A stretch of DNA of 58,408 bases, the filler included, from Fonticula-like sp. SCN 57-25 (taxonomy: Eukaryota): assembly GCA_001724245.1 (NCBI GenBank). It is 5 parts of 5 records of this genome, joined end to end, with 100 filler letters (N's around TTAATTAATTAA, not from the genome) between each part and the next. Parts side by side here need not be neighbours in the genome. Positions count along the whole stretch, not along the records: positions 1 to 12,270 come from MEDX01000200.1; 4 more parts are not named here. One strand, given 5' to 3'. Numbering within the stretch: the stretch's first letter is position 1; every line of letters begins with the position of its first letter. The notes beneath the pieces are model-generated. The model searched no databases. It had not been told where the DNA came from and saw only the letters and a program-made list of their open reading frames with translations. This document shows positions 1-46,778 of this stretch, piece by piece. A program made the translations under genes and the position numbers.

Positions 1-421
1 ACGAATGCGGTCCGCCTGCGAGATATCGACAGAAGGAGTTGCATTGCTGCTGTTATTGTGAGACGAATGGTGATCGCCGTCACTGCTAGGCTCACCGCTC
101 AGGGCGGGCGACGACATGTCTCTCTCCCCTGCGGCGTGTTGCACGTATCCAAGTTCTGTGTGAAAACAGCACCTAAAGGCGAACGGTCTCCGCCCCTCCG
201 TGATTGGTCAGGAACCAAAAAATGTGCCCAATTTGGCTAAATTCCTACCGGATTTGGATTCGGAGCCATTCACCGCTTTCATAGGGGCAGCGGCCGTCGT
301 TCGGGGGCGGCAACATCGAGGGTCGCGCTGCGAGAAGAGGGTCAGGACGCGACTGGAAAGGAAGCCCAAGAAACGGACATAAATAAAGGTTGGCCGTGCC
401 CGGTTTTTGAGAGAGTGGAAA

Positions 422-3400
422 ATGGAGCCGCCAAGGGCACGGGCGGCGTGATTGGCGGCATCAGCGCTCCTTGTCCTGCTTCTCGTGTCGTTGGGCGCGA
501 TGAGCGCTGCGGCTGCAGGTGCGCCGCGAGCTCGCCGCGGGAAAGCCCAACTAATTTTTTTTTTCTAGATTGCGCGGACCAGTCTGGGCAGACGCAATTG
601 GGAGATCTCGTCTCGCTTGGCGGCTTGACGGCCTGCGCCTGCAACTCGGGCGTTACGGGGACCACACCGCTGGCCTGCGACATTCCCATGCCTGCATCCT
701 GCGCAGACAATATTTTAACGCCGAACCCTTTGGTGGNTTTTTTTTTGTTTCTTCATTTTAATCTGTCGGTACATAGGAATCCGTACTCCATTCAGCGAGT
801 GGAGCTCCAAGGCGGCAAACTCATGGTGGAGTTTAGCAGTGCTTTCGAGGAGGGGCGTCGCCTTTATGACGTTCGCTTTCAAGTACGCATTTTTTCCCCT
901 ATTTAATATGAATAGCATGCTAACGGGCGCAGGGATCGAACGCGACGTGTATTCTCCCGTACTCGTCCTACTGGACGCACAGCATCGCCGAGAGCGCCTG
1001 CCGCGATGTGTTCAGGGCGGCCCTCCCGCTCACTTCTCTTACCACGGTGCGTCTTGTTATGGTTTACCACTTTATCTCTTGCTGACTCGTTCCCTTTTTT
1101 ATTAACAGGAGTGTGGCCTTTCCGCGCTCCACAACCCGTCGAGCATTCTTGTGAGCGGGACGCTTCACTTCCGCTCGCACTATGAACACTTTATGAAGGG
1201 CAACGTGTCGACGATGATTGAGCAGTCGTCTCGTGTCCACATTGACATTAATCTCCCGCGCATCATTGACGTTACCGCGAACGCGACGACGGTTTACGCG
1301 CCTGTCGACGTGACCGCGTCCATCATCAACGCGTACTTCAACTCGACGTCGGGCATCGGCTACATTGTGTACCGCACGACGGCGATCTTTCCGTACCGCC
1401 TGACGCCGCCGATGCAAGTCAAGACGACCCCCGGCGGCGTTACCGCAACAATGCAGGACCCGCAGGACTCGTCGTGCCCGACGTGGAGCGACTCGGACTG
1501 CGTGCAGACGTGGGTCATGGAAGTGGTCCCGCAGGACACCTGCTCGTTCTCGGGCGCGTACACGCCGTCCCTGACCATCTCGTGCCGCGAGGGGATGAAC
1601 TGCCCCGCGCTCGTGTCGCCCTTTGCCGACCTCGTCTCGTCGGTCATCTCGGGCACGACGTGCGGCGAGCTCGTGCTGAGCGACCGCCCAAGCGGCTCCG
1701 TGACGAGCATTTCGATCGTCTCGGGCAGCATCGAGGACCCAGCGGGCACCAATCCGCGCGTCTACGTCAGCGAGACCATGGTGCTGCGCTTCTCGGGCAC
1801 GGGGCTCGAGGATGTCGCCTCGTCGGGCCAGTCGCCCACGTGCTTCATCGCATTCAAGGCGGGTACCAGCTCGGCCTACGACGCCGTCTTTGTTCCGGGC
1901 GACACGTCGCGTCAGTACATTGCGCGCACCGCCTACTTTGTCTCGGGCGCCTTTGAGTGCGCGTCACGGGCGTCGTTTTCGGAGTGGCAGACCGTCGACG
2001 CGCACCTCGCGTATATTTCGTCGTACTCGCCACAGCAATTCCTCTCGGCGACCGCGTCAACCGTCGCGGTTGTTGCACGCGCACCGCTCGCCACATCCTT
2101 CACTTTCAACGCCGCCTGTACGTCTCTCGTCGTCGAGCTGAGCGCCGCGAGCGTGTTTGCGTCGGGCGCCAACGATACGGTTCCGTGCTCGCTACTGCTC
2201 GACACGCCGGCCGCCGCCTTTGCCGCTGCACAGGTGCTCGACTCGATGGCCATGGACAACGCCATTGACGTTGGCACCACCGCCGCGTCGTGCCAGGCAT
2301 ACTTTGCATCGTCGACGCGCCTTGTGCTGGCGCCGTCCGGCGCATTTGTCGCGTCGCTTGCATCAAACCGCATTCCACGCCCCGGCGCATTTGCCCTCTT
2401 CAGGCCCGGGGTCCTCATCGCCGCAGGCACGCCGCCGTCACACGCAGAGCCTTTTGTAGGCGGCCTCGCCAGCCTGATTGCCCCGGCCAACCCGGCGCCG
2501 CTGGTGGCTGCGTTCGACCTTCCTGCATCGCTGCCCGCCTGCGCTTCCGCCACGCTGTCCGCCTTGCGCTCGCCGGTCGGCACGATCCCGTTTAAGCGCG
2601 TTGCCTTTGAGCTGGACGCGACCGCGGTGCGCACGCGCATGTTGGCGGCCAACATCCCGCTCGAGTCGGTTGGCGAGGCGGTGATCAGCCAGGTGGCCGC
2701 GCTGCTCGCCAACAACGCGACCATCTTTACCCGCACGATCCCCAGTAACACGCTTGTTGGCGGCGTCGCGTACCCGTTCTCGATCACACTTGAGAACGTG
2801 TGCGGCGCCGTTGGCATCGTGTCTGCCGATATGGCGGTCGGTACTGTAGGGGGCGCGCCGTCCGTGCAGCTGCTCGCCACGCAGCTGGGCGCAAACGGCA
2901 TCCAGTTTGAGGCATCGGTGACGTCGGCCCAGCAGCTCGGGTGCACCGGCACGCTGCCGGCGCTCATCGCAGAGTACCGCTGGTCAATCGAGCGCCGCCT
3001 CGCCAACGGGACGGTCGTCCCGCCTGGCCCACCATCTACCGGCGCGTCGTCGCTCTTTGTTGTTCGCGCGTCGGAGGCCTCCGCGGGTGACACGCTCACC
3101 GCCACCTGCGCCATGTACTCGGCTACGGGCCAGCTCATCGCGTCGTCTTTGGCTTCCACCGTCCTTCGCGGTGTCGCGCCGTCGCCACACTTTGTGTCTG
3201 GCCAGCGCATCTCTGTGCCGAGCGGAACTGGCGTCGCTGACCTTTCCATCGCGGTGGAAGACATGAGCCGCTTGGTGGTCGCCACGTCGGACGCGCAACA
3301 GCTCGCGCCGCTGTACGCCTTTGCTTGGACCTGCACGACTGCCGGCGGGTCGCCGTGCGTGCAGACGGACGGCGAGACGCCGCTTGTGATTCCGGCCGTG

Positions 3401-6393
3401 TCCAACCCGCAGCTGCAAGTCGCTGGCCTTGCTATTGCCACGGGCGGCGTGCCGGCCTTCCCCATTACCGTTCGCGTCACTGTGACGCCCTTTGCGGGCG
3501 GCGCCGACCTTGCATCAAGCGCGTCGGCGACCGTTCAGCTGAGCTCGCTCCCGCCGCTCCCCGTGACGTGAGCGCTATCGACGACGACGCCGGCCGGCCG
3601 TTCGGACGCCTTTTCGGAACGCTTCCGTCGCCAGCTCGTGAGCGGGCGGCGGTTTGGGCTCAATTGCTCGCTGCCGCTGGAGGCGTCGTCGACGGCGCCG
3701 TCGCTCGTGGTGTCGTCCGAGTACGACCCGCTCGGCGACGGCACCGGAGCGACTTTGCTCATGATGACGCCCGAGGACATTGTGCTGCCGATTGAGTACA
3801 CGCTGAGCACGGGCAACACGGAGCTGCTGTCGGTGTTTTCAGCGCGTCGCACGCACTACACAAGCCACTTTAGGCTAGCGCTGAGCGCGTTGCTACCAGG
3901 CCGCGCATACAGCTTCCAAGTCAAGGTGCCGGCGCCCCCGGGGTCCGCGTACGGCGACTTTGAGTCTGTTTACAGCGTCACTGTTCCGACGGGTCCTTTT
4001 GGCGGCGCATGCTCGCTGAGCCCAGCCGGCGCGACGATCACAGTGCTTCAGGACGAGGTTACGGTTGCGTGCAGCAACTGGGCGACGGACGCGTCGGCAA
4101 CCCCGCTGACGTACCAAGTTGTCCTCACGGCTCCCAACGCCACCGCATCAACGTCGACCGACAGCCCCGTCGTCGCCGAGCTGACGGTGCCGAGCTTCCT
4201 TCCGACGGCGACTGTGGTGCTCTCGCAGACAGGCTCGTTCTCCGTCTACGTCATCATCCGGGACCGTACGGGCGGTCTACTTGTGTCGCACGCAGGCGAC
4301 GTCGTTGCGGTTAGCCCCGCCGACATGGGCGGCGTGCTCGACTCGTACGCCGAGAGCGTGCATGAGCAGTGGATCGAGTCGCGCGACGTGCGCCAGTGCA
4401 TGGAGGGAATGATCAACTTTGCGCAGACGGCGTCCAACAACCCGGGCGTGGCGACCAACACGTCCATTGCGCTAATCGCGGACCTCCTGCTGAATGTCGT
4501 CGAAGGCAGCGAGCTGGACCACTCTGTGTTTGGGCCGTCGGCCGCATCGTGCATGCAGCTGCTTGCTAGCCTGCTTGAGAGCATGGGCGACGCGCCGGGC
4601 GATTCACGCAGGCGCGACGTGGGCGGCGACGCCATCTCGCGCATTGTGCTCGCGAGCGACCTTGTGTGCAGCCTGAGTCACCTTGTGCAGCAGATGTCGG
4701 CGAGCGCGTCGACCTCGGGCGACTGCTTTGACGAGAGCGTTTTCGCCACCGCCGTCGACGCGATGGGCATGTTTGTGCACCACATTGGCGCGGCCAACGT
4801 GACGGAAGAGGCGCTCGCCGATGCGGGCGTCACGGCCGCCGGCCTGTTTTCGTGCTACACGGCCATGACGCACGCGTCGTGCGCCTGCTACTCGCGCCTC
4901 CTCGTGGCCGACGAGCCCGCCGTGCAGGCCGAGTCGGCGCACATGCAGGCGGCGTGCGCGGTCGGCGCGGCTTCCTCGGCCATGTCGTTCTGTGGCTCGC
5001 TGACGGACTCTGTAACCTTTTCGGCCGACTTTGCGACGCGACGCTCGCCGGCATGACCGATGCGGTCAGCTCGTCGTGTGCGACCGTTTTTGACAATGTG
5101 TTTGGCACGAACCACACGCTGTCGTCGGTTCCTGCGTACGTCAACACGCGCATCAGCAGTCTGACGCTGCAGCGCGGCGACGGCATCGCGGACTCGCCCT
5201 TCACCAAGGGTAGCTTTACCTTTTCGCTGGTGCTTGATGCAAGCGCCCTCGCGCTCTTGTCCGAGATGGTGGCGCCCGACGGCGTCCCCGGCGACGACCT
5301 CTTTGGCCCGACCACAATTGAGACCCCGCCTTACCACGCGTTCGACGGCATCTGCGTCTTCTTTGACGACGACGCGTGGTCCGACCGCGAGTGCACGATG
5401 CTCGGCTTCAACCTCACTCTTGCCACGGTCACCTGCCGCTGCAACCACCTTTCGGACTTTTCGGTCGTGCTCACGCAGGCGCCGCCACAGTTTGTCGAGT
5501 CGACGCCGCAGGACGCGCGCATCATGGTTGGTATTATTGTCATCGGCTCGTGCATCCTCGTCGGCGAAATCGCCGGCTCACTCGTCATCTGGCGCATCTA
5601 CATTATCCCGACGGCGCGCGCCACGGGCAGCCCCAAGGCGCCCCGCGGCGACGAGGCGGCCGACGCCACTTCGCCCGCCGCCGTCACCCGCAGCGGCACG
5701 GTGCCGCGGCTGCCCAAGCACCTCAGCTTGCTAGGCATCACAACGCTACCCGACGGCGCTGCGCCGCTCGACGGCGAGCCCGCACCGCGCCCGACGCCCG
5801 ACGAGGAGATGCTCGCGTCGCCCACTCCCGAAGTGGTACCCGCGGGCGTCAACAGGAACCTCACCACTCGCAGGCAGAAGCGCGCAGAGCGGCGCGCGCG
5901 CATTACCGAGGAGCAGTCGCGGCCAGACTACGTCGCAACGTTTGTCCCGTCCGCGACGGCGCCGCTTGCCGTGCCAAAGGTGGAGTACCCGCCCGAGCTG
6001 TCGACGCCCATCGAGGCGACGCGGGCGGTGACCACAAGGGTGGTGGCTGGCGCCGAGGTTGTCGTCGTCGCAGACGTGTCGCCGTTGCCGTCCCCCGCCC
6101 CCGTCGCGTCGCCCGCCATGCCCGCTGCTGCGTCTCCCGCCATGCCCGCAGCCGCGTCACCTGTCATGCCCGCGACGCCGACGACGCCCGTGTCGGCCGT
6201 TGTAATCGAGCCGGCCACGCGGCGCGTGTACGTCCCGCCGGGCATGGCGCCGCGGCAGGCGACAAGCGTCATCACGGGCGTTGAAGACGAGCTGTCGCTC
6301 AAGATTGCCCAGCTGCAGATTGAAAAGGAGCAGCTCATGCTCAAGGTCGCGGCGAGAAAGAAGCGCGAGGCGCGAAAGCGCGACCAGGAGTGA
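422..6393 (+). CDS. Large REJ/GAIN-GPS (polycystin-1-like ectodomain) single-pass membrane protein; reading frame disrupted by 2 in-frame TGA and 1 frameshift
   Basis: Exons about 422-518, 569-~733, 777-882, 933-1046 and 1109-6393, with GT..AG introns that keep frame. Signal peptide MEPPRARAA*LAASALLVLLLVSLGAMSAAAA. REJ-like segments (YRWSI, YAFAWTC, GPFGGACSLSP..TVACSNW..PLTYQV). GPS motif CVFFDDDAWSDREC..VTCRCNHLSDFSV. One TM (IMVGIIVIGSCILVGEIAGSLVIW), Pro-rich tail and terminal coiled coil. TGA at 449-451 and 3569-3571, frame change near 5033-5040. Confidence 0.75.
6104..6172 (+). repeat. Three imperfect 24-bp coding repeats (ASPAMPAA)
   Basis: Translation VASPAMPAAASPAMPAAASPVMPA in the cytoplasmic tail. 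Confidence 0.8.
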
Positions 6394-6696
6394 TTTTCGT
6401 GAGGCGAATAGTTGTTTTTTGATGGTTTGTTTCATATATCATTATTGTTGTTGTTGTTGTTGCATAGTTCCGTTGACCTTTGACGTGCATTTTGTGTACA
6501 TTGTGTAAAGGGTGCGCGACGTATTGGCGCAGAAGAGTTTTTATATCGCATGTATAAAGGTGATACCATATTTGTTCCGCTTTCTGCCACTCAGAATTTG
6601 GTTATTTTATTCGCGCGGCGAATCAGCGAGTAACAACAAAACAAAAGCAAAAGCAAAAGTAATTACGACGATCTTAGAATACAATGCTGCAACGCA

Positions 6697-7779
6697 CTAG
6701 AAGCGGCGAATGATGCTTGCCGCTGGGGCGTGCGCGGCCCCGTCCTGCAGCGCCCACGTGGGTATGTGCGGGTTCCTCCCCTGCGCGAGCGCGCCAAAGT
6801 AGCCTGCGCCACCGGCGTCCTCATAGTAGAGCGCCTGCGGCTGCTGCTGCACGTGGTGGTGCTGCGGGTGAACGACCTCGTACACTGGCCGCCGCTGGAA
6901 GAGCGACCCGGCCGACCGCATGATCGCGGGGTCCTCGTACATGATGTCGGCCGCCACTGGCGCGTGCTGCCGCAGCACAGGCTGCGACGAGCGGAACATG
7001 AGCGGGCCGGACGAACGGCCGACAAACGCGTCGTCGTCGTCAGCAACGATGCCGGCGCCGCCGCCGCCAACATGGCGGCGACCATCGTTCTGGATCGTGA
7101 TCACAACGTCCTCGGGGTTGACGCCGCGGCCACCGCGGGGAGCGGGGGAAGCAGCAGGAGCAGAGTTGGCGCGGGGCGCACCGCGACCGCGGGGGCGGTT
7201 CAATGCGCCGGCGGCCGATGCGGCGGCAGCTGCGGCGGGGGTGAGGCGAACAGATGACGCGGGGAGTGATGCCGGCCGCTGGTTCGAGGGGGAGGACGCC
7301 GCGGCGGAGAGGATCGCACGGCCGCGCGCATTGGACGTACGCGCAGGCGATGACGCCGACGCACCGCGGCGAGCGGGGGACGATGGCGTTGTTGTCGACC
7401 TGCAGAGGCAACCACATCAGCGGCTAGGAAAAAAGAGGGATTCGGGACGCACTGAAGGCGGTTGAACACTGCAGCACCACCGCGCGAGCGCTGCACAAGG
7501 AACAAGAGGAAGGAACAGGCGTGAGAAGCGTAGCGGCGGGATCGAGAGAGAGATGCCGTACCTGTGCCGATGCCGATGGCTGCGCGCGCGGCTGGGCCTG
7601 CACGACAGAAAGGCGACCCTGCAGCGATGCCTGCAAAGACGCACACAATCATATGAGCAATGCAATAGAGAGGGCAACAAGAATAATGGAAAGCGCGCGA
7701 GGGGCGCTCCAGTGCAACGTACGTTTGCGCGCGGGGCGCGGCCGCCGCGCCCTGCCTTGTTCCCGCTGTTGCGCGCCAT
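6697..7779 (-). CDS. Hypothetical low-complexity Ala/Arg/Gly/Pro-rich protein, multi-exon
   Basis: ATG at 7779 (MARNSGNKAGRGGRAPRAN) followed by a GTACGT donor. A long open frame runs from an acceptor near 7400 to the TAG at 6697. No recognisable domain. Confidence 0.5.
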
Positions 7780-8285
7780 ATCTGACACTAAACGTGCAGC
7801 CAACAGGCCTGCCACAGGTGTCCACAGGTCGATGGCGAAAATCTTGCAAGATGCCAAAAGACAAAAGTTCTGGCCGTCGAGTGGCCTTTCATGCAATTTT
7901 ACTGTGAAACGTGTGTGTGTATGACAAATAATGGCTCACAAATGAATAGCATAATGGAATAAACGAGTGTATTTAGGGCGCCAGAGCGCGCGTTGCTCGC
8001 CACTGGACGCCGCACGGCCCACGCGACCGCACGGTGTAAACTAGGGATCGGGTAGGAGCTACCAGCATGATGGTGCCAGGAGCGGGGAGGAGAAAGGTCG
8101 GGATCGCGCAAAAGCCAAACTGGCACAAAACTGGGGTGGCGATCCCTTTAAAAAGGCAATACTGTCAAAGGAGTGTCAACAAAAACAATGAAAAAAGCTG
8201 CACGACAAAGATCATGCAGCATCTAGAAAAGGCGCTGCGGCAAAACGCCCGCGTCCCGCTGGTCTACGTGTGACTGTACAGCCCC

Positions 8286-10726
8286 TCAAATGAGCTGGAA
8301 CTCGACGACGATATTCGTGACGAGGAAGCAGATGTAGTACGCGATGAGGACCATGGCGTACTTGCGGCCGGCCGAGAACTTGTTGACGATGATCACGGTG
8401 AGCGACATGATCAGCGAGATGTACAGGCCGGGGATGAGGACGTAGAGGTTCTTCTCAAAGGGGAGGGGGTACCACTCCTCCTCGTACGACATGACGCGCG
8501 CAGTGAACGCAATGCCGAGGCCCAGCAAAAGGTCTAAACGAAGAGTTTAGTTGTGTGAAAATAAGCAGATAAAACACCAAAAGAAGATGAAGGCGAATAA
8601 AACACCACGGAAAAGTATCAAAATGAGGTCAAAAGCAACCATTCTTCCATGCGAAAATGCAACATAAAGAAGGTAAAAATGACAAACACACAAAAGTTAC
8701 CATGAAAAATGCAACAAAAAAAGCCAAAAACAACACGTTACCGTTGTTCCCCTTCCACTTTCCCCGATCGCGTACTGAGGAGCGGCCCACCAAAGCAAGC
8801 GCTGACACCGATACCCGGGTAACCCTTCCTGGCAATCGCCGGGTTGGCCACGAGATCACCCAAACTGTTACCCCACGCGAGCACCGTCAAGCCAAGCAGC
8901 GCGTCGCTGATGCTAAAGAGTCGCCCCATGGTGAGCAGCACGCCGACGAGCTCGCCAGAAATGGTGTAAATCCAGAGCGCCGCCGTGCCAAAGCCGAGGA
9001 AGGCAAACGCCGGAAAGTAGACGGGCGCCACGTGGTTCTTGCTGGTGAAGAAGACGATGACGGCGCATCCGGCGCCGACGATGAGCGCAATCATCCAGGC
9101 GGCGAGCGCGCCGACCTCGTTGAAGCCGGTGGCCGTGGCGCACACGGCGAAAAAGGGGACAATGATCATCTGCAGCGTGGCCAGCGGGCGGTTCCAGCCG
9201 TGCAGGGCGCGCGCGGGGTTCACCATGGGCACGGTCAGGGCCAGGAAAAAGGAAATGGGCGCGGCGACGACGGCGACAAGCTTGGCAAAGATGGACATGT
9301 TGCGCCAGCGGCGGACGGCGGGGAAGAGGAGGTCGACGAGGGTGGGTGTCTCGTGGTCAAACTCGTCATCGTCCTCGGGGACGGGCACAAGCGCCGCGCT
9401 CGAGTCGGAAAGCAGACCGGTGCGCTCGTCGACAAGCACTGTGCGAGGCTGGTTAGCGCCTAAAACAATGAAAACGATCACGCACTGTGCATCTTTTGGG
9501 CGGCGACGACGGCCTCGGCGTTGACGTAAGGGTTGCGGTCGCTGATAAACTTGCTCCTGCACGACATTGTCAGCGTCAATACAACAAAAAAACCCCCAAA
9601 AGGTACGCACGAAGAGGTCGCAATCTCCTCGTAAGAGTCGTTGTTGATGCCCGTCTTGGAGGACTGGAGGGCGCTCGCCTTGTTGCGCTGGTACACGTAG
9701 CGGCCCACGATCACGACGAGAATGTACAGGAGATACAGCAGGATGAACACGATCGACATGCCAGCATTAATCGACTCATTCAACTAAAAGCCACACGGAA
9801 AAAAGGTTAATAAATAGCACATGCCATGGCGGCGGGATGCCGTGAACGTACGACGATGAGCAGGACGTAGGAGAGGCCGAGCAGGTAAAACCCGACATCG
9901 CGGATGAACGGCCGGCGGTTCACCTTGAAGGGCACCTGCAGGCCAATAACGCCGACGACGACGGTCGTAACAAAAACGCCGGCGCCGAGGAGCTGGCCGA
10001 GGGCGAGCATGGGCGTGTCGCTCTGGATCGCGGCGTACGAGCCAAAGAGATCCGGAGCGCCGTTGCCGAGGGCCAGGAACGTCACCTGGGAAGCAAAAAC
10101 ATATAAGAAAACAATTAAAGAAAAATCACAGACGTACACCGGCCATGTTCTCAGACATGCGGAGCTGCGTCGCGATGGTCCGCAGATTCTGGACAAAAAA
10201 GTCGTCCGCGACCGTGCCAAGCCAGACGAAAATCACAAGAAGCCAGACGATCTAGCACGCGATCGTGAGCAGGCAAAGATAGGCAAAGCGCTAATGCGTA
10301 CAAGAAGAACATATGAAAGCCACTGAATGTCGGCAAAGAGGCAAAAGTGGTTGTTGTAATAGTCGATGAGGGATTCAGGCGGACAATTCTCCGTAACGTA
10401 GAGGCACGCGTCCTCGGCCGCGTTCACGTCCACAAGCTCGCACTGCATGCAGGCAACTCATTAGCAACATTGATGCACAGTGCGGACAGGTCAGGGCGTA
10501 CCGGGTAGGGATCCGACTCTCCCGGCGGCGGGGTGGTCTCGTTCAATGCCAGCGGCATGTCAACGCCGCCGTGTGCGCTCAAGAGACCGCGCGTCGCCGC
10601 GAGCGACGCCTTGCCCGCGAGCTGCTTGGAGGCCAGCGACGACGCTGTCCTCGACGTCGAATGTATCATGAGGCCAAAGGCGAAGAGCGCCCAGAAGGCC
10701 TTGGATGGCATGCGGATTCCCAGCAT
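8286..10726 (-). CDS. SLC8B1: Cation/Ca2+ exchanger, NCLX/CCX (SLC8B1-like) family
   Basis: Alpha-1 repeat VTFLALGNGAPDLF, RRPFIRDVGFY, alpha-2 repeat GLTVLAWGNSLGDLVAN..GYP..SACFGGPLLNLLLGLG, Cys-containing N-terminal loop. About 7 exons with canonical introns. Confidence 0.9.
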
Positions 10727-11167
10727 GGCGCCACCCGTGCGTCCGCCGCGGTGCTCAAACAAAAAAGTGAAGTAAAAAAGAGAATTTGGGGTGGAATTTG
10801 GGGTATTCACGGGGTCACGTCAATATGAGTGGAACACGAACATCCTTCGATCCGAGCCAATCGCAATTGCTGACGGCCAATAGGTGAACTAATGGTTGGT
10901 CTTGTAGCCAAAAAAGGAAATCCGTTCGACACGGCGTGGAAGCGTGGAAGCGTCTGCGCTGCAAAGTGTTGGCGGCAGACCGGCAGCGGTTCCGGTCGGT
11001 TCCGGTCAGCATTTCGCTATTGTTAGCAAGCGCCCGCCCCTGAGCCGTGGTTCGGGAGCGCCTGGTGGCCTGCTTGAGCGGTCTGCTTTTATTTCAGCGT
11101 CCCTTTCCTTAATTTCGTGTTCGCGCACAACCTTTCTTCCTCGGCGCACTTTGCACTGAGCACTTCA

Positions 11168-12270
11168 ATGTCGTTCGCGCCATACTCGGTGTCGGTGGAC
11201 GCGGCCGACGATGGCGAGTCGTCGGCGGCCGCCAACGCGCGCAAGAACGGTAACCTCTTTTCCGACCAGCTCGACGGGGACGAGCTGGGCATGCCGGAGG
11301 ACGACGGCCAGGGCCTCGGCTACGATGCGCCCATCGACCAGCAGCTCGAGAGCATCGCCAGCCTGCGCGCCGTCCTTCGGTCGCAAATTTGTACGCCCTT
11401 TTGAATGCACTGCAAATGCGCTTTTTGTGCCTTTGCTCTTTTTTTTTCCATGCGAATTACCTCTTGTTCTCCTCGCCTCCCTTTTAACTGTCGCTTGATC
11501 TTTTCTCTTTTCTGTTGCTAACGCGCTTGTGCTTGTTTCCAGCAAACGGCAGCCACCCGCCGTCCTCTTCCGCGAACCCCCTTTCGCCGCGCGTCTCCAA
11601 CGAGGCTCCCCGGGCGGTTTCTCAGCCGCCGCCGATCACGTCGCGCCCCCCTCCGCTCCCGACAACAGCGGCGCCTCAGCTCCCCCCTTCGCTCCCCGCG
11701 CTCGCGCGCGCTGTCCCGCCGCCGCTCGCCGTCCCCCCCACCCGCGTCCCACTTTCCGCCATGACGGCGCTGCCGCCGCCACCGCTCCCCATCATGGGCG
11801 CGCCGCGCGCGGCTGTTGCCCCTGCCGCGCCGCTGCCGCCGTCGATGTCGCGCAGCGCGTCGTCAAACGAGCCGCTGTCGGCCCTCGCGTCGACAAACAG
11901 CTCGGCGGCGTCGCTCCGGTCGGCCCCAATGTCGCCCGCCGCGCAGCCGGTGACCATCCACGAGGAGGCGGGCGAGGCGCGGGCGCCTGCCCGTAGCGCA
12001 TCGTCGACGCCAGCCGCGTCAGCTCCCACAACACCAACCGCCGCTGCCGCTGCCGCCGCCGCCGCCGCCGCTGCTGCTGCGGTCGCGACAGTAGAGGACG
12101 CGCCACCGTCGTATGACGACCTCCCGCCGTACAGCGCCCTTGACATGGTGCCGGCGCCGCGCCGCCGCGCCGTCGAGCGTTCCTCGCGCCCGTACGGCGA
12201 GCTCCCGAACGGCGTCCTTTCGCATGTACCGTCGGGCCACCTGCGCTCGCCGACGGAGAGCAGACCGCCG
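11168..12270 (+). CDS. Proline-rich hypothetical protein with PY motifs, 3'-truncated by spacer
   Basis: Exon 1 from MSFAPYSV, intron about 11390-11542, exon 2 Pro/Ala-rich with APPSYDDLPPY and a polyAla tract. Runs into Ns. Confidence 0.6.
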
Positions 12271-12370
12271 NNNNNNNNNNNNNNNNNNNNNNNNNNNNNN
12301 NNNNNNNNNNNNNNTTAATTAATTAANNNNNNNNNNNNNNNNNNNNNNNNNNNNNNNNNNNNNNNNNNNN
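12271..12370. other. Artificial contig spacer (N44-TTAATTAATTAA-N44)
   Basis: Exactly 100 nt; the central 12-mer puts stops in all six frames. Confidence 0.98.
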
Positions 12371-13149
12371 CCCTCGACGACAACCTCGACTACGAGCCCC
12401 TTCAAGACCTCTTGTCGGCCGTCACCGCCGACCCGCCCGACGTTGTCATCCTCGGCGGCCCCTTTTTGGACGCCGACCACCCATTGGTCCTCCGCGGCGA
12501 ACTCCCCGCCTCATTGGACGACATCCTCTCCCAGTGCGTCGTGTCGCGCATCGCCGCCGCCGCCGAGCAGCTCAAGGCGAGCACGCAATTCATCGTCGTG
12601 CCGAGCATCGCCGACGTCGCGCACCCGTTCCCGCTCCTGCCGCAGCCGCCGTTCGCGTCTGCCACGTGGCCGAAAAGTGTGCTTTGCTATCCGAATCCGG
12701 CGTGCTTTTCGCTGAATGAGGTTGTGTTTGCGGTGGGGACGGTCGACGTGCTGCTGCACTTGGGCGAAATGTCGGTGCAGCGGCGCGCGGCGGGCGAAAA
12801 GACAAACCCGATGGTGTCACGTGCCGAGCATATTGTGCAGCAGCGGTCCATGTACCCTATCGTGCCGCCTCACGTGACTGCGCCTGTCAATACTCTGCAG
12901 GCGCACGCGCTCGAATTGAGTGTCACGCCAGATGTGCTTGTTTTGCCGTCGCAGTTGGCGCCGTTTGCGAGAGAGGTGATTGGTGGATGCGTGGCTGTGA
13001 ATCCGGGGCGGATTTGTAAGAGGAGAGCGGGTGGGACATATGCCAAAGTGAGTGTGTTTCCGGTGAGTAGGGAGGGCGAGCCAGCACAAGGAGAGGCAGT
13101 GGCCAATAGGGTCAATGAGAGGATCAGTGTCGAGCTAGTGTGGCTATAA
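12371..13149 (+). CDS. POLA2: DNA polymerase alpha subunit B, C-terminal part (5'-truncated)
   Basis: DNLDYEPLQDLL..PDVVILGGPFLDADHP, HPFPLLPQPPF, YPNPACFSLNEVVFAV, TPDVLVLPSQLAPF, VNPGRICK..GGTYA. Confidence 0.9.
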
Positions 13150-23832: not shown

Positions 23833-23932
23833 NNNNNNNNNNNNNNNNNNNNNNNNNNNNNNNNNNNNNNNNNNNNTTAATTAATTAANNNNNNNNNNNN
23901 NNNNNNNNNNNNNNNNNNNNNNNNNNNNNNNN
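23833..23932. other. Artificial contig spacer (N44-TTAATTAATTAA-N44)
   Basis: Identical structure to the spacer at 12271. Confidence 0.98.
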
Positions 23933-24204: not shown

Positions 24205-27200
24205 TCAACTACGGCGCAGCTCCTCCTTCAGCTTCACAACGAGATCTGCAGGAATGTTGTACTTGGTCGAAAGCGTCTGCGGCTCGCCACTGATAATGTC
24301 ATCGCTGACAAGATTGTTTAGCTTAAACGGCTCCGGGTCCATGCCGAGTTTTCTAGCCGTCTCGGCGAGCTTCTCGACCTCCTGTGCGCGGTCGGCCTCG
24401 GCGAGTTTCCCTGCGCCGCCCTCCTTGTCTCGCATACCCCTGGTGTGTCTCCCAGCCGCGTGTTCCTCCTTCCGCCGCCAGTTTGCCACCTGGTCTTTCC
24501 GGACCTCCTTCATCTCTTGGTGCTCCTTGACACCGTTTTCCATGTGGTGGAGCATGAGCTTGACATCCTGGTGCATGTTCAAAATATCCTCATTGTGCTC
24601 CTTCTTGTCTGCAAGAGTAATCGAGCGGCTGATTGGGATCCAATCGGTACCATAGGGATCCTTCTTACACAGCGCGCTAACACGTTCCTCGATCGAGGTG
24701 TACATGGTCTTTTTCTTGTCCGTCAGGTAAATCGTGAAGAAGAGGTAGTTCCACATGCGGTGCTCGCGGCGGCAGTGCTTGTGGAAGCCGCCCTTGTCGC
24801 GACGATCAAAGTCGTACGAGCGCAGTGAGCAGATAAAACACTTTTCTCGCATGTCGTTGGCGATGATGTTCTGCTCACTACGGAGCTGCGAAAAGGTATC
24901 GACAATCACACCAAAGATCATGTTCAGCCCAATCACGTGGATGAAGATGAAGAAGCCAAGATCGTAGAAATAGCGACCCCACACGTAGGACGTCCAGCCA
25001 CTGTCAAGGCTGCCGAGGCGACTACTGACACCGCCACCTGGAACAACAAAGGCGCGCAAAGAATGGATAGATGACAAAGAAGAGCAGACAATGGAGCACA
25101 ATCATTGCAAAAGAACAATCGATTTGAATAAATAATATATCGCAGTCCGTTAGATTCTACTAGTCTGCAAACGGCGTCCGTACCAGTCAGCAGACCCGCA
25201 AGAATGTTTGTCAGGAAGCACTGCCAAAGTGTCTCGCAATACATTCCATCTGTAATCTCATACGAAACGCGCAGCCAGGTGAAGGATATCATGCTAAAGC
25301 AGTAGATGACTATTATGCCAAGTAGACCGACGAACAAGAGTTGACGCCCATTATATGTAATTGAGCGAGTGGCGTTCTTGAGAACCTTGTTGTTTGTGAC
25401 AACATGGAGCAGGTGGAAGGCGTAGAACTGCGGTCGGAAAAAGCCGCCAATCGAAAAGCCCAGAATCATCATGTAGTACAGATTGAGCAATATACCGCTT
25501 CGTTTTCGCAGAGACGATGTGTCAGACAAGACATTTTTCACCAGGTGGTCGATAAAGGCGAACAAGGCGCAGATGACGTGGACGGCGCCCAACGCATACA
25601 GAACGGTCGGCAGCCAATAAGGTTCCTATAGCATAGCGAGGCATGGGTCAGCGTCCGGTACAACTTCCAACGAAGGCCACGTACAATAGGCGTTGTCTCG
25701 TTGATATCCATTGGGTCGCCTTGCCACGTCACCAGCATGAAGAGCTGCATGATAAAAGTGACGGCGACAATTCCAATGTTCCAGACCTTTGTAAACCTTG
25801 CTATGAAATCTATCAGAGAATTTTGGCGATAGCGAGACTCGTTGTCCATCATAATGCGCAATGTCTGCGGAAAAGCGTCTCAGTAAATAAAGGCATCAAA
25901 CAATGTTTAAAGGCAGCGTACTTCGCAGCGACGCAAAAAGTCTTGAACCTTGTCGGTCGGAGAGGAAGTGCGAATGACGTTGTACTGGATATCTTCCTTC
26001 ATCCAGGTACGCAGCGCTTTGCCGTCGTGCACTGGGAAGTAAACCTTTTCGAGCTCTTTGTCGTAAACAACCTCGATCGAGTTCATGGCGCTTTTAAAAG
26101 CCGCTAGCGCCGTATCCGCCTTTGTCTAAACCCAAAATGATACAAGTAAGCCATTTCGCTTCTAGGAACGTGTTGCATTGTCCTCAAACGTACTTTCTTC
26201 TTGTGTTTCTTTAGCGCTTTACGTGCTTTTCTCGACGTGTCAAATGCGAGATTGCCGCGGCTGATATCGGCAACAACGTCATCTTCGACGACTGGTGCCG
26301 GGAGACCGAGGTCGTTGAAACGCGCAAGGATGGAATAGAAGATTGCGGCGGCATCGAGCGTGGTCACCTTGCAGTCGTCAAACTGCTTGCGATCATGAGC
26401 ATACTCGTCTGCGAGAGGATCGTTCTTGGCGATGAGCTTCTCACGATGGAGCAGCGTAAGCGTCTGGGCATGTTCGGCGTAAAATTTCATGTTGGCAAGG
26501 AGAAGGGGCTTGTCGACAACAGCGCACACCTGCGGGGCAAGGTCCTTTGTCTTCTCATCATTGTGCTCCACCATGGTAAAGAGCAGGCCCGCCATCTGCA
26601 CCTTCAAGGCGAGAAGTTCGGTAAAAAAGCAATACGGATATGGCTTCTTTTGGCGGAAGACGGTGTTGCATATTTCCACGACCTTGTTGTCGAACGCAAT
26701 CTGCTGGTTCTCGCTGTTCCCTGCGCATAGAATGCGAAGCGTCGCGACAAGCTCGGTCACGAGCGGCAACGTCGGCAGCGAAATCGACGGGTAAAGGTCG
26801 TGCAGGTACGCGGCCACCTCCTTGACAAGATCGACCGAGCGGCCCACGTTGTCCTCCTGCGCGCGCATATAGGCCTTCAAGTCCTTGTCCTGACCTTGCA
26901 CCATGCTTTGCATCACCTGCAGTAGCAGCTTGATTGACTCTGCCTCTTGATTGGCAAGCATGACTGACTCTTTGATGTGCTTTACCTTCATGTTGTTGGG
27001 AACCGCGAGAGGCTTGGCTGAAAAAGAGGGCTTTGTAACCATTGACCGAGACGCATCCTTCGACGACAAGAGGCCTTTGGCACTATCCGACCTCAGGGTG
27101 CTACTCCTGCTTTCCGACGGGCCGGGTTCCATATCGCCGATAATATACTCGGTTGCAATCGAGTTGCGGTTGCTCTTCGACGAGTCGCTCATCGCGCCCA

Positions 27201-30200
27201 TACCACGGTTAATTTCGTACGCGATAAACGACTCAAGACGATCCGAAAGGTTTAGGATGGACTTTCCATGCTCGTCATCGACGTTCGCCTGGGGGTCAGT
27301 TGTAGCTGATACTGGGGGTGCGAGCGTAACTGCGTTGCCGCGCGTGCGATTCTCATCATCAATAAGCTGATTTTTCATCGTGCGGAGCTCCTTTAATAAA
27401 TCCAAGCGCTGCGTGAGGCGGCGGCGGATATCCTCAAAAAAGGACTCTTCGGATGTGCTCTGGAAATAGTCAAGCAGCGCGCGCTGCGTCTTTTCGTTTC
27501 CCTCGCCAAGAAGGTCGCGCAGCAGCAACAGGGATGCGTTGTTGACGTCGTCTCCGCGAGCGTGTTTGGTGGAGATAAAGTTGACGGCAACTGAAGCGAC
27601 GCCCGCGGTACACATGTGGTCCTGAATGAGGAATTTCACATCGGACGCGCGCGTGCTCTTATTCTTGGGGCCCGGAAACTGCGGGATACGAATGACGGCC
27701 GCCAGCAGCTTTAACAAAGCCTCGTCGGTTTCAATGTAACTTTTCGTGTCAGCCTTGTTCTCTTTGCCTGAATAAGCAAATGACTTGTTCATCTTGTTAA
27801 CAATGTCACGGACGCGCTGAACGTCGAGCGTGTACCGCTTGTAGGGAGAAACGGCAAAAGTATCCTCCTGCAAGATCGTGCTGATATAATGGCGGAAATC
27901 TTCGCCGCCCGTAATATGAGCATCCTTCATGTCCTTCGTACTCGTTTCTTCCTCGTAAATCTGACGAAGGCATTTAACGGCCTTATCGAGCAAGATATTC
28001 ACCGCCAAATCCTGCGCATGTGTTTTTTCATAAACCTCGACGACGTCGTTTTTAAAGGGCGCAGCCTGCTTGTCATTGACTCTGGACAATCCTGCCATGA
28101 GTGATTCCACGTCTTTATAGTTTTCAGCGATGTGAAAGTCGGGCTTGTCCGCATTCCCGTCCACATTTTTCATCACCGCTTTGTACATAGCGTCGAGGGC
28201 AGACGAGAAGAGTGTCTTGTGATGGTACGTGAAGCGGTTGGGATGCGCCATCATCTTGGACAAGAAGTTCAGGAACGCCGTGCTGATCTTGTCCACGTGT
28301 AACTTTAAATCAGACACCGTATTCTCGAGCGCCTGAGACGAGTTGAAAAACTCGGAGAAGAACTTGCGGGGAACGGTCGCGCCAGCTTCAAAAGCAAAGA
28401 ACGAGTCGTGCTTTTCGAGCGGCTTCGAAAAGTCCTTGTCAGCAATTTTGTTTAGCGTGTCCGCAATCATATCCAGGACGCGCCAGAATTGTTTGTCCGA
28501 CTGAATGTCCGAAATACGCGTGTCGGTCGTCACCTGATTGGAATCGAGGTACACCCAAAGCAGGTAGCGCAGGTACGGGCGTTTCAAATCAATGTGAATC
28601 TTGTCATGAAGGAGAACATCATACAACTCATTCAGGCTGAAAATTTGCTGAAGAGTTGACACGCAGTTGCGGTTGCCTCCTTCGGCGCATGACGAAAGGA
28701 ATCGAATGAGGCGCCAGTGGTACTCATGCTCTTCGGGCTCCTTTGCGATACCATTCTTTGAATCAAGCCAGTAGTTTTCAGAACAGTCAACGAGCAACTA
28801 GATATTCACAAAAGCATAAGCAAATGAAACAACCCAAACAAGCGCCGCACCTGGATGCGCTTGTCGTTGTCGTCGTCCTCGACAAGCAAAAGCGTCTTGG
28901 CGCGGCGCATCGTCATGTATCGAAGAACAAGGGTCTGGTTACGCTTGAGCGGCAAGTCGATGGAGTCAATCTTGACAATGTAGTTCAATAGTTCGAGCAT
29001 GTTGGGGATCTGCGTGTTATACTCGGCCAGCAAGCGAACGAGCTTAACAATATGCGACTCCTTAATGGCCATGCAGAGGCGCTGGTTATCGCGGAAAAGC
29101 GATGTCAGCGAACGAATCATATCAGGCCGGCAGATTGGAAAGTCGAGAAACATGTCCAGGCGTTCAAAAACTTCGTTCTGCAGGAGTGTGTGGCCACGAA
29201 TTAAGCCTATTGGGGATCAGCATGAGCGACAATGCGATAAACATTCCATAACACGTACTCTGAAGGAACTTGAACATGGACCTGTACAGTGCTGACCTAG
29301 AATTTTCGCTCTCGGTAATCTCAGAGTTCAGCGGGCGGTTCATGAAATCAATGACAATGTCAAGCAGACCAACGGTGTGGAAGAGGTCCTGGTTCACAAC
29401 ATGGCGAGCGTCCTCGTCATCCTTAAGATGGCAGAGAAGCTTCAATTCGTCAAAGATCCGGGCGACCTCTAAGAAAACTTTCTTCGAATAGCTGGCCTTC
29501 TTGGAGAGCGAGCGAAGAACGGGGAGGTAATTTTTGAGCAGAACTTCGTAAACATTTTGTGTTTCGCCGCTCACAGTGATATAAGAATCATTAGTTGCTG
29601 CTAAAAGTCGGTGCGTCGGTGTGTGCAGCTTGTTGATGATGGAGAAGCACAGGTGAGTCATGCGCCAGTCGTCAAACCGCGAGCATTCCTAAACATCAAC
29701 AGAGTCAGATCAGCTATACTTGATCTGGAAATAACAACGCACAAAAAGAGTTTTAATAAAATCCGTGTCGGGAGCTTTTGCATCCAACCCATCACGTAAG
29801 AAAGTAGTTAAAGCTGTCTTTCCGTGTGTGTCGAGCTGCTTCTTGTCGACCCTTCCCAGATGAACGATAAGATTAGATATCGCCCCGTTGTAAGCTTTGT
29901 TGCGACTAGGAATAAAAGGAACTGTAAGCATACGAGCATGCGCTAATCGGAAGGGTGAAGGGATGCCACGCCACGTACATTGTTGCCTTTTTTTGGCCGT
30001 CTGTCCACGCTTTCGAGAAGGTCGAGAGGAAGGAGAAGACGCGGTTGCGCGACTGGATCTCAATAAAGCTGTCAATGATCTTCAGCAAAGTGTACGTCAC
30101 GGCAAGCGCCGACTTGTTGTTTTCGCTCAGCGCAACGTAGTCTATCTTATCCTCGCCCGTCTCGGTGATTCCAAAGAACTCGTCAGTGTTGTCCTTGGGC

Positions 30201-33200
30201 TTCAGCTTCGTGGTGTTCTCATCAGCGTCAATCTCGTTCTCGACCGGGAAGAGTACATCGTCCACAGAATCTTTCGCCTGCGTGTTCGCTGGCTTCTTGG
30301 CAATCATTGTGATATGATGCGTGACAATTTTCTGCAGATCCATTAGACTGGGCGCATTGCAGTCAATATCCACCTCCTTGTTGTAGCACCCTGCTTCCAC
30401 AAACACATGAACCATCTTAAAGTACCTGTTAGATATGCAATCCTGCGGCTCGGGCCAGCGACAAACGTACCTTGAGAATGCTGACTAGTACTTCGTTGAT
30501 GGCATCGCTATTATTGCTACCCGTTTCGTCAGGTGTAACTTTAAGCAGAAATTTTGAGATCCATTTCAGCAACTTGTTAAATTCCGCCTTCAGGAGAGAC
30601 GAGTGGTTCAGTATATCCCAGGGGTAAACTTGGCTCTTTGTGACATCGCTTTTCGAGTTGACCACCTATGCAAGGGTGGTTAAAAGACCTGGCAATGTCG
30701 AACAACTCGTACCAGTGGCTTCTCCAAAAAGCGAGTGGAACTGACATCAACAAAGGCAGACGTCAGCAGCGACACAAACTGCTTGCAAAGCAATGCACTC
30801 ATTTTGCAAATACCCTTCTTCTCAGGAATGACACTATTCATTGAGATGTCCTTCGTCTCGGGGATGCCTTTCTTCTCGGAGATGTCCCTTGGCTCGGGGG
30901 CGGCGGGTTCATAAGATTTTTCGAATTCCTTCAGTACGGTAAAGCACGTGTCAAAATTAATATACTTGAGTTTGATAAGCTCATCGATGGCGTGCTTGTT
31001 TCCGCCCTGGCACAAGTTGGAGACGAGCTTCACGCTGCTAATAATATACTGCTGCTGATCGGGCATCATGGCGTCAAACACCTTGGCTGCTTCCTGTTCA
31101 GAGGGGTGGATAAAGAGCAGCTGCTGCTGCTCGTCTTTCTCCATCTTCCATCGGGCAATGACCTACAAAAGCAGCCATAGTCAGACCGACAACCAACAGC
31201 GAGGCGCGCTCGTACCGGAGCCTTCTCCTTCTCGACAATGAGGTTCTTCAGGATGTATGACTGGATGTCCGCGCGCCCGCGCTTGGCACACGCCGACAGG
31301 AAATCAAGATAAGACGATGTTTTTTCCTGAACAAGGCTGTCGATAAAGTTTTGGATGAACGGCAGCTCGATGCGGTCAAGAATCTCATCGTCGTCCTTCA
31401 CGAGAACCATTAGCATAACCTCGGCATTGATATGATATGGCGCCTGCCAGTGAAAAAAGGGAATATTGTAGGCGACTGTTAGCAAGTTCTTGCGGGATCC
31501 TCCAGTTATAAACTCGCTTAGCACGCCATACACGCCGCAAAGCACGTCTTTCAGCGCTTTGTGTTCTTTGAGTTGCTCGATGTTGATACCAGAGGGATTA
31601 AAGTCGTCCTCAATGAACTGGTCGACCTTCTTGAAGGGCGCCTGGAGCATCTGCAGGCAAATGTTGACGAGGCCAAATTGGCGGAAAATGCGCTGATTAA
31701 CGCGCTTCTTATTACTTTGAGACAGGTCATCTTTCAAACGCGAAAGCGTGTCCATGACCAATTTTGCCTCGGCCGCATTGACTTCCCACGATTCCGCTTG
31801 CTTGCGCCTGCGGATGAAGCCCAACAGGGCCGGGATCAGGCCCATGAGCTTGTTGCAGAACATGACCTCATCCCGTGAGACGAGCTCAACGGTGAATGCG
31901 TCATCGGATTTGACGCTACGGACGCTTGTCAGGTCATACTTTGCGTCATGCTTATCGTAGATGCTGAGGTAATCCACTTTCGAGTCACGGGACAGCGAGC
32001 GCTTTTTCGCGTTGCGGAGCGCCGCCGGACCCTTTGAACCCTTGTCGCCATGAAGAGAGCACGACGTCTCAATGTGCTCGAAGTGGCCGAACGCTTCAGT
32101 CGTGACATCTCCAGTCGAGTCCTTGAACGAGTACATCTTAAACACAACGTTCCTGTCGACGATCGTAGTGAGGGCGGCCGGGAGCGCATCGGGCCCCGTG
32201 CTCTGATCCTCGTTCTTGACACTACCCTTGCCGTCCAAGACCAAGTACTTGCGCGAAGCCAGGTGCTTCAAGCGAATGGGCTTGCCCCAAGAGAGCGGCT
32301 CGCCGGAGGTCGGCTCTTCTTGACTTTCAACCTGGAAGTAGGAGAGAACCGATTCCTTCTCCTCCTTATTGTCAAGACGAATGCGGAGATAGGGAGTGGC
32401 TTGGTCGACGTTGTTGTTCTCGTAGAAGACATCATCAGCCTGGATGTGCGCGTCAAGCTCGCGGTGGTGCAAGCACACTGTGTCGCCAAAGTGAATCGCC
32501 TTCTTGCCAATGGCAAACTCCTTTGACTCGAAACGGCGGTGCAAAACGACAACGAAAGGAGACCCGGTCTGAGACAGGGACGCCTCATACAGCGTTGGGT
32601 CAGTGGAAATCCGGTGTTCCAGCGCAATCTTGAGGCCTGCGGCGCGTCAGAAATGAGCTGCAAACAGAATGCGGTAAGTGTAGGCGCACCGGAACGTTTT
32701 ACGCTCTGAAGGTGAAAAGTATTGCCCTGGTAAATGAAGCCTCCCTCAGCGTCCGCCTCGTGAAGAGGCATGATCTTGAAGAAGCACGACTTGTCGCTAT
32801 CATCGCGCAATTCGACGCGACTTTCCCAGCTCAATTTGGAAGTCTTCTTGGCGTTAACTGAGAGAAACTTATTGGTGTAGTTGTGCTGCAGCTGCACGAT
32901 GTCGCCGTACTTGACCGACTTGCCAGACAAGCGGCGCTGCGAATCTTTGTTCTCGCGCTTGTCCGCCTCGCTTTGGCGTACAAGATTCTGGTAATCCGCA
33001 TCATTCTCCAACACTACAAAGCAAAAGAAGTTTAGAAAAGGGCATTACCCTGCCGAAACGAAAGCGCGCACAGGCTGGGGTCGTCGTCGTGGACGCGTTT
33101 GACTTTGCGGCCGAGCGGAGCGCCGCCAGGCGGCGCGAGGCCTTGTATTTGGAAGGGATGACCAGCTCGAAGACGGCCATCTGCGCAGGTAGGATTTTTG

Positions 33201-35275: not shown

Positions 35276-35375
35276 NNNNNNNNNNNNNNNNNNNNNNNNN
35301 NNNNNNNNNNNNNNNNNNNTTAATTAATTAANNNNNNNNNNNNNNNNNNNNNNNNNNNNNNNNNNNNNNNNNNNN
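35276..35375. other. Artificial contig spacer (N44-TTAATTAATTAA-N44)
   Basis: Identical spacer. Confidence 0.98.
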
Positions 35376-36424
35376 GCAGAATCGCTGCTGCATCTCGACC
35401 TTTTGCCGCCGCGCATGCAGCAGTCGTTGTCGTCGCTGATGCAGGCGAACACGTCGGGCGACGCCATGTCCATCTGCGGCACCTCTGCGCTTGCCAGCGC
35501 GCAGATGCCTCCCCCGCGGCCGCCGTGCGCCATTCAGCTGGTCCCCGTCGGCCCGCTCGCGCGCTGTGTCACCGTCTTCAACGCCGTGGCGCGCGTCGGC
35601 GAGGCCGTTCGGATCGGCCGCTCCGCCGACAGCGGGATCCAGATCCTGCACGCCAACGTGAGCATGAGCCACTGCGTCGTGCAGCGGACGCCGCACGGCA
35701 CCGTCCTCGAGGACACGAGCATGAACGGGACGCACGTCAACCACGAGTGTGTCGTGCGCGCGTCGCGCCCAATCCAGATCGGCGACGAGATCGCAATCCA
35801 GCTGTCGCACCAGCGTACGCCAGCAGCATGCCGGACCTTATTTCTAATGTTTTGTGGCTTGCCAGCGGCCGCCGAGTGGGTGCGCCTGTCGGTGCGCGAG
35901 CAGCAGCAGCCCAACAGCAGCGTGATGGACGTCGACGAGAGCGCCGGGGAGGACGCCGCTGCCCCTGCCCTCCCCTTCTCCTCCTTTGTCGGAACGGTAC
36001 GCGACCGCTAGACCTCTTTCTGTGGCTCACCCCTACGCTCGCAGCGGTCGTACTGGGGCCTGCTGATGCTCATGACGGACGGCGCCGGCGAGACGATCCA
36101 CCTGCGCTCGGATGTGGTGCACGTGAATGGCGCGGCGCCGGGGGCGGTGCATACTGCGCACCCCGTGCTCAAGTCGTTTTCCGTGACGCTGCGGCGCGTC
36201 AGTGCCAGTGTCACGGCGTGGGAGCACCACATGGCGGGCGTGGCGGTGACGCAGAGCGGGCGCGATGGGCTCATAGGGGCCAATGAGGAGGGGCGCCTCA
36301 CTACGGGGACGGTCATCAGCTACAGCGCAGCGCCAGGTGCGTGGCCTACTTGAGTTTGATTCATAGCGCTGACAAATTGGACATTATAGGCCACACCGCG
36401 TCCGTCGTCTTTTACCTTGTTAGG
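35376..36424 (+). CDS. FHA-domain protein, probably 5'-truncated; 3' end approximate
   Basis: VRIGRSADSGIQILHANVSMSHCVV..LEDTSMNGTHVN..IQIGDEIAI matches the FHA signature (GR..S..H..NGT). A second degenerate FHA-like beta segment may follow (GLIGANEEGRLTTGTVISY). Confidence 0.8.
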
Positions 36425-46678: not shown

Positions 46679-46778
46679 NNNNNNNNNNNNNNNNNNNNNN
46701 NNNNNNNNNNNNNNNNNNNNNNTTAATTAATTAANNNNNNNNNNNNNNNNNNNNNNNNNNNNNNNNNNNNNNNNNNNN
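46679..46778. other. Artificial contig spacer (N44-TTAATTAATTAA-N44)
   Basis: Identical spacer. Confidence 0.98.

Follow-up and report, generated by a model that had tools for sequence, protein, structure and literature searches.

Two in-frame TGA codons and a one-base deletion in a REJ-GPS receptor gene of Fonticula-like sp. SCN 57-25: probably a recently inactivated allele

Introduction

Can a gene whose reading frame is broken three times, twice by an in-frame TGA and once by a shift of one nucleotide, still be a working gene? The question is raised by a gene for a cell-surface receptor with a REJ domain and a GPS motif, found in 58,408 nucleotides (nt), filler included, of Fonticula-like sp. 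SCN 57-25 (NCBI GenBank assembly GCA_001724245.1; by the window we mean the whole of this stretch). The source is an uncultured eukaryote, represented in reactor and water metagenomes. The original prediction offered four options for the gene: gene-specific readthrough, adenosine-to-inosine (A-to-I) editing, a recently inactivated allele and an assembly error. We conclude that the gene is probably a recently inactivated allele, that is a young pseudogene or a null allele of the REJ-GPS receptor gene. This option gained from the lack of the frameshift in a second population, from an apparent polymorphism at position 3571, the last letter of the second TGA, and from the traces of past purifying selection on the gene; the option of an assembly error lost ground, three other assemblies and the sequencing run that covers the gene best agreeing with the window.

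The window consists of five separate contigs of about 11.3 to 12.3 kb, and the receptor gene lies on the piece 1-12270. Among the matches listed are 19 runs, with no RNA run among them, and those that contain the gene (X1, X2 and X4) are metagenome runs. The run with the largest share of the gene (X1; share 0.94, about 13x) is available as contigs of an independent Logan assembly; X2 belongs to the same study and is of a later year, and X4 (share 0.48) belongs to another study. The comparisons between runs rest on the 40 differences from the window that are listed out of 92. The protein sources compared comprise 1.84 billion representatives. A further run, X10, whose record gives the name of an organism, shares with the window just three stretches, located between 5444 and 6065, that are identical to the 3' part of the gene, and little else of it; these may be RNA, contamination or a matter of low coverage.

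A five-exon gene with three lesions

The gene is single-copy, has five exons and encodes a type I surface protein, which would have about 1924 amino acids (aa) if mended. Its parts and its lesions are as follows (ORF, open reading frame).

422..518, plus strand: exon 1, with the start codon and the signal peptide (MEPPRARAA as n-region, then a hydrophobic core, with AAAA at the end), as read from the sequence
449..451, plus strand: lesion 1, a TGA that forms codon 10, within the signal peptide
519..568, plus strand: intron 1, 50 nt, GTGCGC..CTAAT..T-run..TAG, joined in phase to exon 2
569..736, plus strand: exon 2, Cys-rich, with its final 4 nt and the donor inside the collapsed gap N737
737..776, plus strand: intron 2 as printed, N + 39 nt = 40 nt; real size about 58 nt
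777..882, plus strand: exon 3, 106 nt
883..932, plus strand: intron 3, 50 nt, GTACGC..CTAAC..CAG
933..1046, plus strand: exon 4, 114 nt; both population differences (1019, 1025) synonymous
1047..1108, plus strand: intron 4, 62 nt, GTGCGT..CTGAC..ACAG
1109..6393, plus strand: exon 5, with ectodomain, REJ, GPS, membrane helix and tail; natural stop TGA 6391-6393; bears lesions 2 and 3
3569..3571, plus strand: lesion 2, a further TGA in frame (PLPVT-stop-ALSTTTP), which alone separates the two same-frame ORFs
5033..5034, plus strand: lesion 3, one base missing relative to the X4 population; the shifted frame stops at TGA 5054-5056

The start codon, ATG 422-424, stands in a good context (gaaaATGG) and opens the nonapeptide MEPPRARAA, which is followed by TGA 449-451 and then by LAASALLVLLLVSLGAMSAAAA. 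Read through the TGA, the exon encodes an n-region with charges, followed by a hydrophobic core and an end of small residues, which is the textbook signal peptide that the original prediction had seen there; its in-phase splice from GT519 to AG568, with a CTAAT and a T-run, stands as well. An alternative first exon or acceptor downstream of TGA 449-451 was considered and rejected, since there is no pyrimidine tract and no upstream ATG exon and since the context of ATG422 is strong. When the overlapping frame-1 ORF 412-735 was used as a protein query, as an indirect way to the state of 449-451, there was no match among 2 candidates.

The N at 737, to which the original prediction had pointed in connection with an assembly error, is a real gap in which a stretch has collapsed: behind 736, X1 inserts 18 letters and X4 inserts 17, and these letters complete exon 2 with its final 4 nt and supply a GTACAA donor. 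The two inserts differ from each other by one letter and by one base of length. The four introns of the gene, which are 40-62 nt long as printed, have 25-54% GC (guanine plus cytosine) and carry CTAAT, CTAAC or CTGAC ahead of a T-run; in intron 4 there are, among the differences listed, four differences and a 1-nt indel (1100) between runs.

Exon 5 is covered by three ORFs. Two of them, counted from stop to stop, are 1106-3571 with 821 codons and 3572-5056 with 494; they are in the same frame, with TGA 3569-3571 as the only stop between them, as had been claimed; the 472-aa ORF of that claim is the second of the two counted from an internal GTG (P0005). The third ORF, 4732-6393, is in another frame and overlaps the second one by 324 nt. 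The GC content at third codon positions (GC3) is 0.79-0.83 in all three ORFs, and an excess of population differences at third positions is likewise common to all three. With GC3, the Pfam domains (see below) and this excess taken together, the arrangement of the ORFs is beyond chance. After the natural stop TGA 6391-6393 the sequence is AT-rich.

The lesions in other assemblies and populations

The third lesion is the one for which an intact state has been seen. An A is inserted behind 5033 in X4 (3.84 of 3.84 depth, one 530-nt contig), and it is absent there from X1 (0 of 13.2 depth) and from X2 (0 of 3.1), which gives a precise place to the frame change that had been predicted near 5033-5040. 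The extra A falls in the overlap of the two frames, so that in X4 the second ORF continues into the third-frame reading ...DATLAGMTDAVSSS. Among the differences listed it is the only coding indel of X1, X2 and X4; the remaining indels are at 736 (the gap), at 1100 (intron 4) and at 5883/5886 (a 34-nt patch of an X10 contig). The site is not in a homopolymer. Programmed frameshifting was rejected because GAC TTT GCG ACG contains no slippery heptamer and because X4 has an in-frame allele.

The second lesion appears to be variable in the source sample. The X1 contigs are interrupted here, one reaching 3570 and its successor starting at 3572, and in a graph of k=31 a single variant at 3571 would give a contig break of that kind. 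A hole in X1 at 3358-3362 ends exactly at C3362, which is the site of the Q724E variant of P0001 and P0003; such holes therefore mark variant sites. Judging from the contig ends, A3571 of the second TGA thus appears to be polymorphic in X1, and any other letter at this position gives Trp or Cys. Proteins do not help here. A query of 101 residues with the second TGA at its centre, written as X, matched none of 33 candidates of 55-177 aa, and none of the 11 proteins from the search of the representatives aligned across the site, so orthologues cannot tell whether W or R stood there. A search at 723-2303 aa returned P0001 only and no fused form of ORF1 and ORF2 or of ORF2 and ORF3.

The first lesion seems to be fixed in X1. 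The contig that covers 300-2013 at about 13x is identical to the window at 449-451, and no intact state at this site was seen in it. Of the three sites at which a check of the DNA had been proposed, 449-451 and 5033 are thus as printed in the X1 contigs, and 3571 is a contig break.

Three ENA contigs (12421, 12875 and 15141 nt) carry the same breaks. The 792-aa ORF ends in them with ...PLPVT, at 2-4 residues from the window, and the 472-aa ORF ends in the shifted tail ...FATRRSPA, at 0-1 residues from the window; the 446-aa ORF from ATG5053 is present on 6 contigs. Several haplotypes thus break at the two downstream places, and the lesions are real in the DNA and unlikely to be slips of assembly. 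The differences of the X1 contigs from the window are all accounted for by the differences listed; the third of record 1 is presumably the N.

X1 contains two haplotypes at 2329-2461, with depths of 6.6 and 5.0 and 7 differences in 133 nt, the two forming the arms of a bubble; this is compatible with heterozygosity in a diploid as well as with a mixture of two strains; other haplotype stretches of X1 are at 1984-2107 and 3358-3362. One may ask whether the organism has an intact copy after all, the lesions being on different haplotypes and the window being a chimeric consensus of a gene that still works. That the two haplotypes are of similar depth (records 4 and 5) and that 3571 looks variable in X1 would suit such a copy. 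The X1 contigs of about 13x, from which rare variants are dropped, cross both 449-451 and 5033, however, and there is no bubble at either place; we consider an intact copy unlikely.

An intact gene, with stops and shift arising from consensus errors in metagenome assembly or sequencing, is very unlikely. The window does consist of joined metagenome contigs, the collapsed gap N737 lies inside this very gene and the depth of about 13x is modest. However, since the same ORF ends recur in three other assemblies on different haplotypes and the Logan contigs of X1 and X2 agree with them, an assembly error is improbable, and the position of the shift outside a homopolymer also speaks against it.

Thirty-five of the 40 listed differences between runs and window are in coding sequence (exons 4-5); there are 24 synonymous and 11 non-synonymous ones, each being counted singly. 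With 1428 synonymous and 3963 non-synonymous sites the ratio of non-synonymous to synonymous polymorphism (pN/pS) is 0.17 (binomial p = 2e-7). The low ratio indicates that purifying selection acted over most of the divergence of the populations and hence that the break is recent.

The inactivated allele

We propose that the assembled allele carries three germline lesions, a TGA at codon 10, a TGA in the middle of the ectodomain and a deletion of 1 nt before the GPS. Translation from ATG422 would end after nine residues, and re-initiation at ATG500 would yield a protein without signal peptide. The allele would be null, and the later lesions would have drifted in at no cost. The lesions would be young, at least one being absent in another population and one seemingly segregating in the source sample. 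Both the lack of function and the order of events are what we infer.

A close parallel is provided by unitary pseudogenes and segregating loss-of-function alleles, which share with the gene described here the combination of nonsense and frameshift in a well-kept, single-copy, intron-bearing gene, the population variation of the lesions and the visible past purifying selection. The gene differs from unitary pseudogenes in being known from metagenome contigs of an uncultured eukaryote alone.

Several points weigh against a recently inactivated allele. Both nonsense codons are TGA, for which p is about 0.03, a value that is post hoc, with n = 2 and with exon 1 outside the count. The alternative letter at 3571 is unseen, and a hole between contigs alone proves nothing. 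The insertion in X4 is found in a single contig at a depth of 3.84, and a difference of this kind may be an error; moreover, the in-frame evidence from X4 covers 5033 only. The ENA contigs and X1 may have the same source as the window, so their independence is uncertain. Finally, the pN/pS of 0.17 mixes lineages; it is low overall and shows no relaxed constraint on this lineage.

If the allele is indeed inactivated, the locus looks like a gene loss caught midway in a wild protist population, with one lesion seemingly fixed locally, one seemingly segregating and one absent elsewhere. It also advises caution in annotation: in-frame TGA codons in metagenome-assembled eukaryotic genes can be real and yet be plain loss-of-function alleles.

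Recoding, leaky termination and splicing

Recoding could keep the gene working, be it by readthrough of UGA (with near-cognate Trp, Arg or Cys), by insertion of selenocysteine or by A-to-I editing to UGG. Such a mechanism would agree with the strong past constraint on the gene, with the seeming fixation of the first TGA in X1 and with the fact that both stops are TGA, which by codon make-up represents about 16% of the single-base routes to a stop (for each of the two); TAG represents 69-71%, mostly from CAG. We nevertheless regard recoding as very improbable, because the same allele has the 1-nt deletion, which none of these mechanisms can mend, because the other population (X4) has the in-frame form at 5033, and because the A of TGA 3569-3571 seems to be variable in the DNA itself.

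The codon usage points in the same direction. The frames of exon 5 contain 9 TGG and no further TGA in 1759 codons, and the gene itself ends in TGA. A genome-wide reassignment of TGA did not emerge: TGA terminates the gene, the in-frame TGAs elsewhere in the window are intronic, and long uninterrupted exons are found elsewhere in the window. CGA accounts for 1 of the 77 Arg codons of the gene, and TGG occurs 9 times. CGA being rare and TGG commoner, a change from TGG to TGA is the likelier origin of the stops, at least at the second site, whose seemingly variable base is the third one. Both premature stops are in the pentamer CGTGA (gCGTGAt and aCGTGAg).

The signals that usually go with recoding were looked for. 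With E up to 1 allowed and 1-8000 searched, Rfam gave no selenocysteine insertion sequence (SECIS); its two matches there were weak, unrelated and far below the gathering scores. The stops stand in the contexts TGA-TTG and TGA-GCG, which are unlike UGA-CUA, the consensus for high readthrough in PMC4359377. As to editing, in Fusarium graminearum the transcripts of PUK1, AMD1 and about 70 other genes have a UAG that is edited from A to I to give UGG, with U at -1 and in hairpin loops (PMC11156358). The likeness is that there, too, in-frame stops are found in otherwise functional-looking genes. The known restorative editing of fungi concerns UAG with U at -1, whereas here the stops are UGA, the A follows a G, and there is a frameshift alongside; the status of an ascomycete is unsupported for the organism.

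A related reading is that leaky UGA codons are tolerated in this organism, owing to near-cognate insertion of Trp, Arg or Cys or to a signal specific to the gene, the frameshift being a separate event, later and private to the bioreactor population; X4 would then express its gene across both UGAs. Such leakiness would account for both stops being TGA (about 3% by chance) and for the apparent constraint. If it were true, selection would let UGA nonsense alleles persist but not UAG or UAA ones. We hold it to be highly doubtful.

There is little chance, too, that an in-frame intron removes the second TGA and leaves the first TGA and the shift as the only lesions. The 72-nt stretch 3563-3634 of the original prediction does exist, is GC-rich and coding-like as stated, and is accompanied by a 75-nt stretch, 3568-3642; both begin with GT and end with AG, their lengths are multiples of three, and introns of 48 and 51 nt that are in frame and contain stops do occur in this genome. 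However, the two stretches have 68% GC, compared with the 25-54% of the gene's introns, and contain no T-run and no branch motif (CTRAY), and third-position GC is coding-like throughout. Their donors, GTGACG and GTGAGC respectively, differ from the six seen, which are GTGCGC, GTACGC, GTGCGT, GTACGC and GTGCGT in the window and GTACAA from the gap letters. Moreover, a variant at 3571 would be irrelevant in an intron and fits a TGG/TGA pair.

The encoded receptor

The protein is a single-pass REJ-GPS surface receptor; the spliced receptor with signal peptide and GPS of the original prediction is borne out by the five-exon model and by Pfam. The features of its C-terminal half are the following.

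3863..4282, plus strand: REJ domain (Pfam PF02010), E 3.1e-12, 46 bits
5350..5466, plus strand: GPS motif (Pfam PF01825), E 1.4e-6, 29.1 bits, cut-off 22.5
5521..5607, plus strand: single membrane-spanning helix (IMVGIIVIGSCILVGEIAGSLVIWRIYII), from a hydropathy scan; the sole strong peak in the translation of exon 5

In the read-through translation with X the REJ domain is found with E 1.3e-14 and 54 bits (curated cut-off 25), the match spanning positions 272-404 only of the 452 of the profile. The GPS contains CRCNHLS (Cys-x-Cys-Asn-His-Leu-Ser) at 5434-5454, with the predicted cleavage at HL|S. The membrane helix starts 22 codons after this heptapeptide and is followed by a tail of 262 codons up to TGA 6391-6393. 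The approximately 900 N-terminal residues match no Pfam family, and in the last ORF Pfam gives the GPS only, with no PLAT, PKD-channel or seven-transmembrane (7TM) domain.

A REJ domain and a GPS with His-Leu-Ser close before a helix are common to this receptor and the group of polycystin-1 and the sperm receptor for egg jelly. Polycystin-1 proper (PKD1, PKDREJ) has PLAT and 11 helices after the GPS, whereas the gene described here is without PLAT and has one helix; a polycystin-1 proper is ruled out by the missing PLAT and the single hydropathy peak. An adhesion G-protein-coupled receptor is also ruled out, neither Pfam nor hydropathy giving a domain of seven helices behind the GPS. A single pass is also seen in one REJ protein of sea urchin.

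The search of the representatives returned 11 proteins, 2 of which are the gene's own ORFs and 9 of which are remote (P0006-P0014). REJ is found in 5 of the 9 remote matches, and one of these 5 (P0009) contains a GPS as well. The best foreign match, a protein with fn3, has E 4e-11 across 60 residues. In the contigs of JGI metagenomes there are two loci (L001 and L002) with a 27-residue match of 59% only, which we judged to be non-relatives. By sequence comparison the receptor is nearly an orphan, with nothing close beyond its own alleles. An orphan-like, single-pass REJ-GPS receptor with scarcely any relatives among 15 billion predicted proteins may interest those who work on the origin of the ectodomain of polycystins and adhesion receptors.

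Other genes and the joined pieces

Elsewhere in the window, pairs of coding-like ORFs that are in the same frame on the coding strand and are split by one stop are explained by canonical introns of 48-51 nt, with lengths that are multiples of three (48 and 51 nt where measured).

35997-36044, plus strand: intron of an FHA-domain gene, 48 nt, with TAG
about 50800-50880, minus strand: intron in a third gene, stop at 50844, TGA in a CTGAC branch motif
52685-52735, plus strand: intron of MCM4, 51 nt, TGA within a CTGAC branch motif

The name MCM4 comes from an Atlas search with the MCM ORF. From the shared intron signals we infer that the other pieces, which are separate contigs, are of the same organism. 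The following further genes were recognized by Pfam.

8738-9766, minus strand: Na/Ca exchanger
12371-13149, plus strand: DNA polymerase epsilon/alpha subunit B
24205-32646, minus strand: channel like the IP3/ryanodine receptor (MIR, RIH, RIH_assoc, Ion_trans)
36569-37681, minus strand: diacylglycerol-kinase-like protein
43289-44044, plus strand: Sec1

The pieces are joined by four spacers of the form N44-TTAATTAATTAA-N44 (12271-12370, 23833-23932, 35276-35375 and 46679-46778), and since they are five separate contigs, genes on different pieces need not lie next to each other in the genome. The GC content of pieces 2 and 3 is 47-54%, that of piece 1 59-67%.

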